Of a DNA stretch of 64,000 bases, positions 400-60,035 are shown piece after piece. Where the stretch lies: NCBI RefSeq assembly GCF_006345805.1, contig NC_043018.1, positions 17,484,001 to 17,548,000 of the forward strand. The letters run 5' to 3'. The notes under the pieces are model-generated. The model was not told the origin of the DNA. It did no database searches and saw only the letters and a program-made list of their open reading frames with translations. This DNA comes from Octopus sinensis. Taxonomy: Eukaryota. Positions within the stretch are counted from its first letter, which is position 1. Each line of letters starts with the position of its first letter. The position numbers were made by a program, and so were the translations under genes.

Positions 400-612
400 T
401 AAGTTAATCGAAACAAGGCACAAAAACAACACAAAAAAACACAACAACGCGAAGACGTGGAACAAATATAGTATTATTGGACGCTCAGGAAAGAAGGAAG
501 AAGGAGGGTTTAACGATTCGAGCGGAGCTCTTCGTCGGAAACATAGGGGAAGGAAAGATCCAGAGAAGGGAAGACAGAGGCAAAAAATCGGCAACGGTAC
601 ACACGAGGTCAC
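400..612 (-). mobile_element. Short (TA)n-embedded element (Penelope pLTR/retrozyme-like) carrying a variant minimal hammerhead motif at 508-542
   Basis: Minus strand reads GUUU-CCGACGA-A-GAGC-ucc-GCUC-GAAUCG-UU-AAAC. Helices I and II pair; the core differs from CUGANGA/GAAA at two positions. Flanked by (TA)n on both sides. Confidence 0.6.
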
Positions 613-1876
613 ATATATATATATATATATATATATATATATATATATATATATGTATGTATGTATGTATGTATGTATGATGTATATATATATATATATA
701 TATATATATATATATATATATGTATATATATATATATATACTGGATGCCTGACGTTCAATTAAATAATTATAATGAATATATATATATATATATATATAT
801 ATATATATATATATACCACCCCACAGAGATATCTCATTTAGGACGACGAGGGTTCCAGTTGATGAGATAATGCGAGCCAGGATTCTGGAGAATATTTATG
901 GGAACCATTCACACCCTACAGCAAATGAAGGGGGACCTAGAGGCAGCATTGCTCAGAAAACCGCCCACTTCTGCGTCTGCTATTTCATGGGCTCTCGATG
1001 GGATGCTGATAACTATGAAGCTGCAACTTTTCTTACGCATATTCAAAACGCACGCTTCCTGTAAACGAAATGAAAGGACATATATATATATATAATATAT
1101 ATATATATATATATATATATATATATATTATATACATATATATATATATATATATATATATATCTACATTATATTATTATATATATATATTAATATATAT
1201 ATATATATATATCTATATATATTTGTTGAAATGGAAAGATGAATTTTCTTGTTACAGATTATTCAAAAGTTTAACCGATACCTGGGTAGGAAAAATCACA
1301 CCAGAAAACATATATTATAGATAATACCATATGGTGTTGCAACCGTGCATATGCGGATAATTGAAGTCATTCACTAATTATATATATATATATATATATA
1401 TATTATATATATATTATATATATAACACATATATATATATATATATAAACACATATATATATATATACACCCCACATATATATATATATCTATATATATA
1501 TATATATATATATAGTCTACACCATATATATATATATAATATATATATATATATATATATACATACATCCATACATACATACTTACATACATACATGCAT
1601 ACATACATACATACACACACATACATATACATACACACACACGCACACATATGTATTGGAATACGCCATACAGTAGTAAGTCATGGGTATAGGTAAGAGG
1701 TCAAAAGTGGCAGTGGTGTCAATGAGATTGACTTCAGTGTATGATGAATAAGTGCTGACGTGAACGCAATCCAATTACTAAAAGCAGTAAAGTAGAAAAT
1801 GGTGGAAGAATAGCGATGCAGTTTGATTTAACATCAGAAACATGGAAGCAAAGAAAGATCACAATATTAACCGCCA

Positions 1877-56070: not shown

Positions 56071-57053
56071 TTAGGTTGTTCCGAAAATAATAACCGATTT
56101 CAGAAACATAGTTTTATTCTGGAAAAATTAACAATAAAACTGTTTTGATTAGTCCAAATATGAGCCGTGGACATCTAGGTACCTCTGAAATCGATTAACG
56201 AGATAAAAAACTTATTGGCCTTGATGCTAATAACGTGTTTAAATGCTTTAAAAATACTAGTCAATGGGTGAAAGATCCGTAGAATATGGAAAATGTAGAA
56301 ACGTCTCGTATCCAAAGTCTGTGAGTTTCTCCAGCGTCATCCTTGCAACATGCGACTTTGCATAATCGTGGAGCAGAATTGGGCCACACCGATTCCTCAA
56401 TGCAAGTTTCATATTTTATCAAGTGAGCATGCATTTGAGTGAGTTGATTGCTGTAAACCTATGCTGTAATGCTCTGATTGGCTTCCAGAAGCTGTAAGGG
56501 TCAACACCAATTGCAGACCAAGAGACGGTCACAATAATATTTTGCTGATGCAACTTTAGGTTTGGAAAATGTTTGGGGGACTCATAGTGACCAAGCATTT
56601 GAGCTGATAGTTTACGGTTATCCTAAAGGAACCACTTTTCGGCACAAGTGATTATTCGGCCAGGAAAAGCACCATTGGTGTTTCGCCGAACATTTTGATT
56701 TGCATTGAGCTCATGAGGTGCCCATTTATCGAGCTTTTTCACCTGATCAATCTTCAGCAGATTGCGTGAGACCGTGGCAATACCGACACCAAGTGCCTGA
56801 GACATTTCTATGACACTTTCAACAATTGCTTTCATTTGTTCATTGTCAAGACTGCATGACTATCCTCTATCTTCTTGATCTTGAAGGCTCTTCTCACCAC
56901 TACAGAATTTCTGAAACTATCTTCATACTACGTGATCACTTGTGGACCCCTCTCCTCTTGCCTTGTTAATATTGGCAGTAGTTTGCGAGGCATTGTGTCT
57001 GAGCTTCAACTGATACAAGAAAACTAAGTGAAGCTCATTTTTGTCATGTTCAT
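56071..57053 (-). mobile_element. Decayed mariner (Hsmar1/cecropia-like) DNA transposon: transposase pseudogene and one TIR
   Basis: Pieces: VFLYQLKLRHNASQTTANINKA...FQKFCSGEKSLQDQE; KKLDKWAPHEL (WVPHEL motif); RIITCAEKW; GPILLHDYAKSH (HDNARPH); HFPYSTDLSPID (YSPDLAP.D). TA|TTAGGTTGTTCCGAAAATAATAACCGATTT at 56069-56100. Confidence 0.9.
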
Positions 57054-60035
57054 AATTAAGGGCACTTATGCGTCAAGAATGTTTTTCCTTCCTGAAATAG
57101 GTAGAAAATTATTATGATCGCACGCTGCGCATCCTTTTCCAAGTTTGTATATCTATATTCTGGAAAAATTATATATATATATATATATATATATATATAT
57201 ATATATATATATACAATTCTGTGTGGAACAAGAAAAATAATTCTGGTTAGAAGGAAAAGTAATGAAAATAAAAAAAAAGCTATGGTGTTGAAAAACTAAT
57301 CTCAAAGGGGGAGATATTGTTACAGATGAAAGACAAATGAAGGAAAATGAAATAAAAAAAAAAAGTTAATGCCATACCTCCACGTTTCACCATAAAGGAA
57401 TTATCCGTGGATTCTCAGTGAAATCTCAGCTGACACATAATAAACAATCTAAGTAGCAATCGTCTCCGTGGGGGGTCACGTGCGTACAGATTTCCACTAT
57501 TATACATCGGAATTCCAATTCAAATGTCTTCGACTAGCGCCACAAGCCAGAAAAAAATGCTGTGAATAGAATTCTGCAGGGAATTAACGTTCTAGAAATC
57601 ATTCTAATGTGTCGGCAGTAATTCCACTGAGAGGCTACGGAAAATTCCTTAATTATTTGGGTATGGAATTAACTGTTTTTTTTTTGTTTGCCTTTAATTT
57701 GTCTTGCTCTCAATCACCTAGCGCACTGCTACTTTGAGAACTCATTTTTCGTGGTAGGACGATTTGGCGTCTATTTCCAGCATAAAAGGAATCCAGTTAG
57801 TGGTCTTTCCTCCTATTTATATATTTTAATGTAGTTTGCAGTCATTAAAGTATGTTGGCCACTGGCTTAAATTAGGATTATTTCATATCAATTTCTACCC
57901 TTAGTATTCAATCCTTATACATATATAAATATATATATATATATATATATATATATATATATTGCATATATACATACAAATAAATGCATATATATATATA
58001 TATATATAATATATATATATATATATGCATATATATATATATATACACACATATATATACTTACAACATACACGCATACACACATATATTTATATATATA
58101 TATGGATGTGTATATATATATATATATATATATATATATATCATTGTTCAGTTTAATTTCAAGATTTCTTGTCAACAGGGAAAGAGCCCGTTTCTAACGT
58201 AGATCCAAGGCTCCTCCATTTTAATTTGAGCATCAACAACAGAATGCAAATATAGACCAACAACAGAATGCAAATATAGACCAACAACAGCAGTAACTTT
58301 GTGTGCATGTCTCCTCTATTTTTAATTATTGTGAATCTTCCACTGAGGAGGGAGACGGTTTCCAACAAAGATTCAACGCTCCATCTTTGGGTTGTAGTTA
58401 ACACAGACAAATTCACATTTGGAACTTGAAAATAGTGTTGCATATTTTTATTGTTCCACTCACATATTGTTCTTGTACGAATTAGCCGGTTAATTTCTCT
58501 TTCTGAAAATCCTAGTTTATCCAGAATTATATCGCATCCTCTGGAAAGTTTAAGGTCTCTCTTATAATGTCAACTCTATATAATAATAATTTTCGATGTG
58601 TTAACATGTACCACCTTGCGACAAAACAAACTTTCACTAAATTAATTAATATACCTTTCATCTAAACGGCAGCCTGCAGCATACACTTCACTTGGATGTT
58701 TGGATATTTACCTATGAAACATCTAGGTCGGATCTTATCTACTCCATTTCTTAACTCTTGTGCATATATATATATATATATATATATATATATATATTAT
58801 ATATATATATATATATATGTATATATGTATATGCATATATACATATATACATATATACATATATATAAATGCATATATACATATATATATAATATATAAA
58901 TACAAATAATAATATATATGTATATATATATACTAAAATACCAGCGATCGGTAAAATTTATTCTAATGACGAATGTAAAACTGACAGTCTTTGTTAAAGA
59001 TAAAAGTAATTTCTGTTTATAAATTTGAATAGTCGTCATTAACTGATGGTGCAAAGCAGAAACAATAGAATATATTTAGAGAAACTTGAGAGTGTAAATA
59101 TTTTAGAAAGCAATGACCGAGTTACAAGCCAGAAAACGTAGACGTAAAATGTTTTAGACGCTTCCCAATTAGATTTAAACTTATTATGATTGCGACTAAA
59201 ATGAATGCAGCTCTCAGAGTTCTCTGTGTGTTAGTCAATAATATCTTAGTATATAAGTGATGGCCTTTTTATTAGTTTATAATAATGATTAGTCTGCTGT
59301 CGCTTTAGAAGTTTAATATTCAATGCTTCGATCTGCAGAACGACCCACTCATTGATTTTAACTTTTACATGTCGAAGTATTTCAGAGACACCGATAACAT
59401 TAATTTGATAGTCAAAGAGATTCACTATATCACCGAGTGGGAAGAAGCTGGGTCTTGCTACATATTGTGCCATTCTTACTGAAGAGAAAATTTCATCAAA
59501 CTCATTGAGATCGAACACGAGACCTTTTGATTATGAAGTGAATTATGAACGCACTAATCATTTTTCATCATAGATAGTTAATTCTTTTCTCCCTGTGTAT
59601 TTAAAGATATTCGTCAAAAAGCTTTTGCTTCCGTTGCATTGATACAGTAAGTAGTTTAAACTAAATTAAGGGAAAAAATGTAATTTTAAATACATCGTTT
59701 CATATTATTGTTACGCAGTTTTTTTTTTACAGTTGTCTACAAATGTAAATATTCTGTTTACAGTTTGTCTATTCTTAAATGTAATACATCAGCTTTAGTA
59801 AATTACGTTTATGTCATTCTTATAAAGTATTACTTGGTTTCTTAACTTATAGTTAATACAAATGCAATTATCTTAGTTAAATTCGTCAGAGAGGATTAAG
59901 TACTTTCTACAGTCAGAATGGTAAAGGAACAATAAATGTAATAACGGATGTTCGAATACAATGTATGCATAAATCAGATTTGTCAGCTATAAACCGTACA
60001 AAATTCTATAGTAAACATATTATTACAGTATTGAA

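Follow-up and report, generated by a model that had tools for sequence, protein, structure and literature searches.

The stretch of Octopus sinensis DNA analysed here (NC_043018.1, positions 17,484,001 to 17,548,000; 64,000 nucleotides, hereafter the window) contains the ends of several families of Penelope-like elements (PLEs) with hammerhead or hammerhead-like motifs, a duplicated block and the 3' end of a non-LTR element (Table 1).

Table 1. Elements and motifs in the window (positions are those of the window)
Feature	Position	Strand	Description
Family A	402..612	-	5'-truncated 3' pLTR of a PLE with cysteine linker; (TA)n on each side
Hammerhead look-alike	4370..4400	-	No UH cleavage triplet; unsupported
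Family E	8506..9017	-	Older PLE-type 3' end; hammerhead-shaped relic at 8606-8701
Family B	31547..32322	-	5'-truncated copy of a young PLE; 3' UTR about 2 kb
Family C	32638..32838	+	Short pLTR end and inverted 5' arm, between (TA)n
Duplicated block	35182..51032		Two 7.9-kb copies (98.3%) flanking a 100-N gap at 43061-43160
Family A'	39777..40018	-	Sister of A; hammerhead at 39874-39909
Family H	49658..50293	-	Frameshifted thumb-linker-GIY-YIG remnant of another PLE; again at 41692-42300
Family D	50336..50600	-	Short copy: tRNA-like cassette, (AAT/AAC)n, hammerhead 50422-50467, tail
RLE-type non-LTR 3' end	58140..58525	-	UTR hairpin, (CATA)n tail; flanks read by eye

A strict custom descriptor of the hammerhead matches the window three times, at 31670-31747 (-, family B), 32649-32693 (-) and 32702-32750 (+, both family C), while 40 local shuffles of the window gave 0.075 +/- 0.26 matches per shuffle. 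Permitting one core mismatch raises the number to six, the additions being 39873-39910 and two poor matches, against a mean of 0.675 and a maximum of four in shuffles. The sites at 31670-31747, 32702-32750 and 39874-39909, which an earlier note on this DNA had proposed as type-I hammerheads, are among these matches. At 508-542 and 50422-50467, the copies have decayed too far for the descriptor, which other copies of families A and D do pass. In 1.13 Mb of loci chosen for these families, 188 matches fall into 23 clusters, and three shuffles gave none. With helix III removed from the descriptor, a perfect palindrome occupies its place in 15 of the 23 clusters versus one of 16 matches in ten shuffles. 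An Rfam scan of the window gave 323 matches, and the 150 that were listed include no hammerhead family. Folding energies of the seven motifs as monomers are near those of shuffled sequence (z -1.9 to +0.4), as expected if minimal hammerheads fold as dimers via a palindromic helix III, as published work suggests, and were left out of the evidence. A minimal type-I core with helices I and II, palindromic helix III and UH is found family-wide in B, D and, as a C4 variant, in A. Family C has a genuine helix III, yet a rival register of helix II competes, and A', E and the sites at 4370 and 58183 lack the canonical core. Judged by sequence, the five main motifs are genuine type-I hammerhead motifs, with putative self-cleavage, in high-copy repeat families of at least a thousand copies each.

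Family A, presumably Neptune-like, has lost the GAAA of its hammerhead in the window copy; tallies of the core across copies place C at position 4. The genome search returned 1050 candidates, 40 of which were scored (90-97% identity), and one locus (L269) has the order pLTR-RT-EN-3'UTR-pLTR. In its sister A', 19 of 22 copies carry U at core position 6; A' recurs at about 47755-47990 inside the duplicated block and has 20 incidental matches (72-90%) in the fetched loci. The family B hammerhead combines a long helix II with an 8-nt palindromic helix III. Its 1629 candidates (96-98%) include copies as long as 4.5 kb that hold both RT and EN (RT 3667-5289 and EN 5392-6111 in L047), inverted arms occur in nine of 20 long loci, and 3' ends lie at +205 or at +103..115, i.e. 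with an optional tail. Helix III of family C measures 4 bp; among 1539 candidates, 34 part matches on the opposite strand adjoin 41 main matches, an optional 3' tail is seen, and same-strand coding sequence upstream comprises RT in one copy (L299) and EN in another (L292).

Longer copies of A, B, C and D continue upstream into Penelope-like RT and/or GIY-YIG sequence and feature inverted 5' arms, so that the motifs in the window are 5'-truncated pLTR ends. All four are EN+ elements whose hammerhead-bearing pLTRs stand in tandem or inverted arrangement, and in D, B and C an optional tail is present at one end only; the Pfam GIY-YIG model gave a weak match in a single locus (L053, E 0.063). The link of the hammerheads to Penelope holds, as does their distribution over many lineages, here several distinct PLE families. 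The proposal of non-autonomous mini-elements using unrelated remnants had to be given up, since A to D are each the 3' end of their own RT/EN-coding element.

A cysteine linker precedes GIY-YIG in A, B, C and H and is absent from D. According to the part of the published survey that we cite, this linker separates the Neptune/Nematis from the Penelope/Poseidon clades (PMC8557442). (TA)5 is present within 260 nt of 29 of 33 A, 41 of 42 B and 46 of 52 C copies but only one of 36 D copies, the window background being 26%. The statement that the elements are mostly bounded by (TA)n is correct for A, A', B, C and E and wrong for D. The cysteine linker is likely what directs A, B and C into (TA)n, and this contrast within one genome, with three linker families in (TA)n and linker-less D elsewhere, fits a published proposal.

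Three weaker sites did not stand up as hammerheads. Family E (3185 candidates, 83-86%, inverted and tandem arms) lacks U16.1 family-wide, and its motif at 8606-8701 is a decayed relic. The site at 58183-58385 (3813 candidates) has no CUGANGA box and sits behind the end of an RLE-type ORF; it is no hammerhead but the 3' UTR of a LINE of the RLE type, which we take to be R4/Dong-like. The sequence at 4370-4400, without UH, fails the descriptor and has one candidate in the genome search.

The GIY-YIG remnant near 41701-42320 is real (48% to the L053 EN; E 1.2e-9 with a small EN-profile HMM). It belongs to yet another family, H. By eye only, a decayed hammerhead-like motif is discernible near this family at about 49434-49474. 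The duplicated block is probably one locus assembled twice, a false duplication around the gap, which would make 41692-42300 and 49658-50293 the same locus. The second proposed Penelope remnant, at 25104-25230, gave nothing by tblastn, the small EN profile or Pfam. By eye, this segment looks like an EN C-terminus.

Family D alone behaves SINE-like and avoids (TA)n; its tRNA-like cassette had been missed in the earlier note. In the window copy, the cassette is about 30 nt short between its A and B boxes, and a second copy at about 42368-42632 has a broken hammerhead. The genome search yielded 3973 candidates, and exact pattern matches genome-wide numbered 1719 and 8269 (controls 0), the latter figure, for a 27-base pattern, pointing at tens of thousands of copies. 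Long forms carry RT and GIY-YIG motifs without the cysteine linker (L145, L139, L149, L141), with RT and C-terminal GIY-YIG in one ORF in L145 and L149, and D is a Penelope/Poseidon-type element. In its pLTR, a tRNA-like cassette with A box and B box lies about 40 nt behind the ORF stop and is followed by (AAT)n, the hammerhead and the tail; the cassette sits at a fixed distance in 26 of the 30 loci that were selected for their EN sequence. A full-length copy was not found in six extended loci, the longest covering 1.95 kb. The ORF seems to open inside the pLTR, as read from one copy and from 9-nt length steps. At the 3' end, 45 of 98 arms bear the tail and the other 53 stop 18-56 nt earlier (mostly 25-31); where arms have an inverted partner (n = 36), exactly one arm has the tail in 30 cases and both in none. 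In Penelope-like elements, reverse transcription begins at two sites that define the tail, as stated in the cited part of PMC11167929. A stand-alone SINE made up of head and (AAT)n was also considered and rejected: in the head-selected loci listed, the head is joined to D body sequence on at least one of the arms.

The A and B boxes of the cassette were identified by their match to the box consensus and are 34 nt apart. This spacing falls within the range of 30-40 given for type-2 Pol III promoters in the cited part of PMC7279448. Both boxes are present in short D copies, as in the 5' head of a tRNA-derived SINE. Of 31 arms that reach a 28-nt interval at the cassette edge, 25 stop within it, versus none of six over the following 28 nt (p=4e-4) and eight of 39 over the preceding 28 nt (p=7e-7), the arms not being fully independent in either comparison. 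Counted by locus, an intact cassette is present in 43, of which 34 start at its 5' edge and nine run on; this count leaves out one duplicate and the 46 of 90 loci without an intact cassette. The cassette edge is most likely a transcription start, probably for Pol III, with short RNAs that would be retrotransposed as SINE-like copies.

As a whole, we consider it probable that the motifs are the pLTR ends of several coding PLE families and that the D cassette acts as a promoter, probably for Pol III, which seeds SINE-like copies. An RNA that starts at the cassette, whether in a 3' pLTR or in a short copy, would run via hammerhead and tail into the flank. The D RT/EN would prime at the tail and copy up to the 5' end of the RNA, where a small hairpin may let the cDNA fold back and thus give rise to an inverted arm. 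As a short copy retains promoter and tail, it could seed further copies.

It is conceivable, if distinctly less probable, that all families are truncated PLE ends, that an internal Pol II start or hairpin-mediated fold-back of cDNA causes the hot spot in D and that the tRNA-like piece was captured and persists as an inert relic. Indeed, 19 of the 34 head-started loci join an inverted arm, several with the hairpin loop flipped, and nine of 15 listed joints in RNA-seq reads are inversions from the cassette edge. About 11 junctions, however, are direct as judged by eye, and a hairpin of 4-5 bp seems unlikely to trap some 80% of passing cDNAs. Inversions in family C centre on a short palindrome at which no Pol III boxes were noticed by eye, so that hot spots can arise in other ways, and other PLEs carry internal promoters in the pLTR, as the cited part of PMC8557442 has it. 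On the other hand, the correctly spaced boxes of D lie just inside the hot spot, and such a spot is absent from B, where the 5' ends of 19 copies are scattered from -144 to -4284, while 14 incidental A-type matches start anywhere between -17 and -127.

An inert relic would also agree with a cassette without tRNA fold: it does not form a cloverleaf (z +1.5), and its T stem is broken. ARAGORN called no tRNA in 12 loci at default settings and, with a relaxed score, called the cassette in three loci among 34 calls overall, many of them noise. The Rfam tRNA model did not match the cassette even at E<=10 and gave nothing at gathering score in ten loci. All three weak matches of the cassette in phages are annotated tRNAs (E 0.05-2); neither of two in plasmids is. 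In public RNA-seq of a carrier species, D shows no sharp starts or ends and equal strands, such libraries being a weak test, and 65-69% of reads extend into the flanks, indicating read-through only.

A more far-reaching version of the promoter reading appears rather unlikely to us, namely that D is an autonomous, protein-coding Penelope which has exchanged its promoter for a Pol III cassette of tRNA origin. Its upstream pLTR would then give rise to an uncapped, T4-free RT/EN message and the same cassette in its downstream pLTR to a self-renewing hammerhead SINE, in effect a SINE residing within the element that drives it. No T4 run is shared among six long D copies or across 25.8 kb taken from 30 copies, and the ORF side is as poor in them as the short body. 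A, B, C and H have 3-8 such runs, and the paucity in D is not significant against shuffles and codon controls (p 0.2-0.8).

Independent lineages of non-autonomous retrozymes, mobilized in trans by unrelated Penelope remnants and using (TA)n as a niche, seem very improbable and are largely refuted for A to D. Most copies seen of A and C are short, the genome has a true tandem hammerhead repeat, of about 478 bp, at another locus (L049), and retrozymes have been reported as PLE derivatives (10.64898/2026.07.22.740005). Yet each tested family runs into its own RT/EN, the copies in the window stand singly or as inverted pairs and not as head-to-tail arrays, and copy ends do not coincide with the hammerhead cut site. 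Cleavage of long D transcripts by RNase P at the cassette, followed by reverse transcription of the 3' pieces, would account for 5' ends clustering near the tRNA +1 equivalent but can hardly be reconciled with the missing cloverleaf, the broken T stem and the 2-14 nt that many copies retain upstream of +1.

That hammerhead-bearing Penelope ends abound in animal genomes is already known, and the bulk of our findings repeats this; the tRNA-like cassette inside the pLTR of family D is the new part. As far as the cited portion of the animal survey goes (PMC8557442), published PLE hammerheads resemble ours in the short helix I, the extra nucleotide after A9 and the palindromic helix III, in many families per genome with mostly single motifs from truncated copies, and in opposite-strand pairs, a tail on one end and a preference for (TA)n that goes with the cysteine linker. 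Tails there are 30-40 nt long, against about 90 nt in B and about 60 nt in C; A' differs by its family-wide U at core position 6, and that portion describes no pLTR with a tRNA-like cassette for Pol III. PAc, a Poseidon element of Anolis, shares with D two start sites of reverse transcription that define the tail and AT-rich targets other than microsatellites; its ORF begins inside the pLTR, which in D is seen in one copy only, and the cited part of that report, unlike our observations on D, describes no tRNA-like cassette (PMC11167929).

Non-LTR retrozymes have type-I hammerheads and PLE ancestry in common with the window families (PMC7229834; 10.64898/2026.07.22.740005) but consist of head-to-tail tandem units, an arrangement present at L049 and at no site in the window; tandem hammerhead units without coding parent do not describe the window families. 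The schistosome elements Sm-alpha and Sj-alpha, as presented in the cited parts of PMC6765202 and PMC2770079, are short high-copy retroposons with a Pol III promoter, putative in D, and a type-I hammerhead. They form tandem repeats, and no coding parent is named there, whereas D occurs as monomers or inverted pairs and its parent PLE carries the same cassette. Helenus, Ajax and Cassandra (TRIMp3) likewise bear a Pol III promoter derived from a small RNA in a terminal repeat, a putative one in the case of D, but are non-autonomous LTR elements with PBS, PPT and TSD, while D is a PLE whose long form encodes RT and EN (PMC10886601). Should the D cassette be a Pol III promoter, it would offer a route to the birth of a SINE with head and tail both originating within the autonomous partner, and initiation and translation of PLE RNAs would become testable in a high-copy family. 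D would then be a Penelope counterpart of Helenus and Cassandra and might serve as a model of how schistosome Sm-alpha arose.

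Longer copies of families A, B, C and D run into RT and EN sequences of their own, and the strong hammerhead sites of the window are therefore 5'-truncated 3' terminal repeats (pLTRs) of coding elements; we consider it very probable that they are truncated ends of Penelope-like elements (PLEs). Family A (1050 candidates) continues for more than 1.5 kb upstream, and one fetched locus (L269) features pLTR, RT, cysteine linker, GIY-YIG, a long UTR and pLTR in this order. Family B (1629 candidates at 96-98%) reaches up to 4.5 kb including RT and EN; in an alignment of 19 of the 20 long loci, its 5' ends are spread between -144 and -4284, whereas the 3' end falls at one of two places about 90 nt apart. 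Family C (1539 candidates) usually has an inverted arm, and either RT (L299) or EN (L292) resides on the same strand in longer copies. The earlier note had proposed non-coding, ribozyme-bearing mini-elements in (TA)n microsatellites, mobilised by Penelope enzymes. The link to PLEs stands, as does (TA)n for A, B and C, while RT and EN in the longer copies speak against non-coding mini-elements. A 2014 paper describes most hammerhead motifs as single and as probable PLE truncations, some pairs on opposite strands being separated by 100-700 bp (PMC4209133). Inverted arms and a tail on one side only are characteristic of PLEs (PMC8557442), where RT has two start sites that are marked by the tail (PMC11167929). 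Most of the finding is known PLE biology; the new part is family D.

Features of the window, in window positions
Feature	Site	Strand	Hammerhead motif
Family A	402..612	-	508-542
Family A', sister of A			39874-39909
Family B	31547..32322	-	31670-31747
Family C	32638..32838	+	32702-32750
Family D	50336..50600	-	50422-50467
Family E, PLE-type	8506..9017	-	canonical motif rejected (8606-8701)
Family H, GIY-YIG (EN) remnant	49658..50293	-	
EN remnant, other place	41692-42300		
LINE 3' UTR hairpin	58183-58385		rejected
Weak motif	4370-4400		rejected
Proposed Penelope remnant	25104-25230		
CR1/L2-like ORF end (by eye)	~25250-25490	+	
SINE-like head, A and B boxes	~28235-28289	-	
SINE-like repeat, 127-bp tandem pair	14514-14754		
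7.9-kb block, two copies	35182-43060; 43161-51032		

The type-I hammerhead motifs themselves are real. Our descriptor (core box, helix II, GAAA, palindrome or helix III, UH, helix I) matched the window three times in its strict form, compared with 0.075 +/- 0.26 in 40 local dinucleotide shuffles, and six times versus 0.675 with one core mismatch tolerated. The copies at 508 and 50422 are not matched because of private changes, but the families of both are. Across the 302 fetched loci (1,131,730 bases, selected for these families) 188 matches in 23 clusters were obtained and none in three shuffles. When helix III was omitted from the descriptor, a perfect palindrome still occupied its place in 15 of the 23 clusters, with several distinct sequences, as opposed to 1 of 16 matches in ten shuffles; Cervera and de la Pena name a palindromic helix III as a PLE hammerhead feature (PMC4209133, in part). 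No Rfam hammerhead is among the matches listed for the window (150 of 323). As far as the consulted parts go, 235 Rfam hammerheads are given for a squid (PMC6962438), and an octopus repeat annotation from 2026 reports 30 recently active Penelope families without the word 'hammerhead' (PMC13282606). About 19 more hammerhead families, mostly with differing helix III palindromes, were met by chance in the fetched flanks (for example L020, L044, L051, L075, L109, L118, L208, L236, L264 and L297). In family A', 19 of 22 copies have U at position 6 of the hammerhead, a natural core variant, and position 7 is variable. Helix II of family C is able to continue across the GAAA box, a family-wide built-in inactive fold.

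Three weaker sites did not hold up as hammerheads. The family of 58183-58385 (3813 candidates) lacks CUGANGA, follows the end of an RLE-type ORF and terminates in (CATA)n as judged from flanks inspected by eye, the signature of a LINE 3' UTR hairpin; the motif at 4370 has a single candidate in the genome search and no UH; and family E (3185 candidates, arms inverted and tandem) lacks U16.1 throughout. The EN remnant is genuine and belongs to another family, and support sought for the proposed Penelope remnant was not found; the CR1/L2-like ORF end adjoins the latter piece. The 7.9-kb block occurs twice around a 100-N gap at 98.3% identity, probably as an uncollapsed haplotype, so each site inside is probably one locus and counts once.

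AT microsatellites are abundant in the window, G000:C22:17484001-17548000, and the source genome, an animal's and judging by its repeats probably an octopus's, measures 2.72 Gb. Of the hammerhead hits, 29/33 (A), 41/42 (B) and 46/52 (C) but only 1/36 for D are followed by (TA)5 within 260 nt, the background being 26% for the window and 9% for the flanks of D; (TA)4 occurs in the following 20 nt of just 3 of 98 D arms. The cysteine linker is present in A, B and C and absent in D, a contrast that fits a hypothesis quoted in PMC8557442 (seen in part).

The long form of family D (3973 candidates) encodes Penelope/Poseidon-type RT and GIY-YIG. About 40 nt past the ORF stop resides a tRNA-like cassette of 75 nt, followed by (AAT/AAC)n, the hammerhead and the tail. 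Matches to the A-box and B-box consensus lie 34 nt apart within it, and its distance is constant in 26 of 30 loci chosen by EN sequence. Exact patterns count 1719 for the cassette, 8269 for 27 bases located 3' of the hammerhead and 0 for controls. Ends were mapped in 90 loci (the first 98 of 100 listed places of the 27-base pattern). The 98 arms start in the body (26), the microsatellite (33), inside the cassette (8), in a 28-nt interval around its 5' edge (25) or farther up (6). Among arms reaching this interval 25/31 stop there, versus 0/6 in the subsequent 28 nt (p=4e-4) and 8/39 in the preceding 28 nt (p=7e-7), arms of a single insertion not being independent. By locus, 46 lack an intact cassette and one is a duplicate; of the remaining 43, nine continue into the ORF side, and 34 start at the cassette, 19 of them joined to an inverted arm and 15 through a direct junction; of these 15, three look inverted by eye and one looks ORF-side with a deletion. 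Thirty head-selected loci (six in common) gave 8, 12 and 10 in the same order. The 3' ends are bimodal, and none of 36 arms with an inverted partner carries the tail on both arms. In one copy, an ATG 5' of the hammerhead opens a frame to the element end with one stop inside, and tail lengths fall in 9-nt steps (21, 18 and 4 of 45 arms); this hints at an ORF beginning within the pLTR, as in PAc, and the cassette would then sit where a promoter belongs. Some D copies deviate: in L143, L149 and L116 (7 of 181 tallied copies) two 3-nt deletions eliminate the cleavage triplet and make helix I shorter, which suggests that D may spread without a working hammerhead; L165, L175 and L252, all long, each have a deletion of their own that extends from the B box to within the (AAT)n run; and in the window copy the part separating the two boxes is missing. 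Another non-LTR sequence (RLE/Dong-like by eye) lies inside the (AAT)n run of L100, L112 and L118 at ~1550-1900; in this way, D appears to distribute insertion sites that a different element can use.

From the observed anatomy, truncation map and targets we infer that transcription would start at the cassette, that RT/EN would prime at the tail and copy as far as the RNA 5' end, where the cDNA would frequently fold back, and that short copies, retaining promoter and tail, may seed further ones. Given truncated PLE ends, we somewhat favour Pol III as the origin of D's short copies; a Pol III transcript comprising the whole D message is unlikely. Shared T4 runs are absent over 1.95 kb of D versus 3-8 in A, B, C and H, a difference that is not significant. 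Cassette-edge starts might instead stem from a Pol II start or from fold-back, both serious rivals of the Pol III reading: most D inversions are joined at a small hairpin lying at this edge, and family C likewise inverts at a palindrome. The D stretch was found in 12 studies under five organism labels, and DNA contigs of one species, organism B, span ORF side and cassette. Three RNA-seq runs from organism B, sampled at about 6% each, yielded 7391, 5654 and 5165 reads, equal on both strands, 65-69% extending into flanks; no sharp start or end was found in these libraries, which are ill suited to short Pol III RNAs, and the reads represent read-through. A tRNA origin of the cassette is weakly suggested: all three phage hits are tRNAs (weak matches, E 0.05-2) and relaxed ARAGORN called it a tRNA in three loci among 34 noisy calls. 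Neither of two plasmid hits is a tRNA, Rfam tRNA gave no match at E<=10 and none at gathering score, default ARAGORN found none in 12 loci, and no cloverleaf fold was found.

In the literature covered, partly as excerpts, we found no PLE pLTR described as bearing a tRNA-like cassette; Repbase or Dfam, papers under subscription or supplements may mention one. Octopus OR1 is described as a CORE-SINE (PMC4824008, in part). The locus L049 (G000:C25:28830000-28838600) contains at ~2900-5750 a ~478 bp head-to-tail repeat, four units plus one inverted, each with a type-I hammerhead, a candidate for a true non-LTR retrozyme. According to the available portions of the sources, retrozymes are tandem (PMC7229834; 10.64898/2026.07.22.740005), Sm-alpha consists of tandem SINE-like repeats in which a hammerhead is linked to a Pol III promoter (PMC6765202, PMC2770079), and the LTRs of Helenus, Ajax and Cassandra contain Pol III promoters, but these are non-autonomous LTR elements (PMC10886601).
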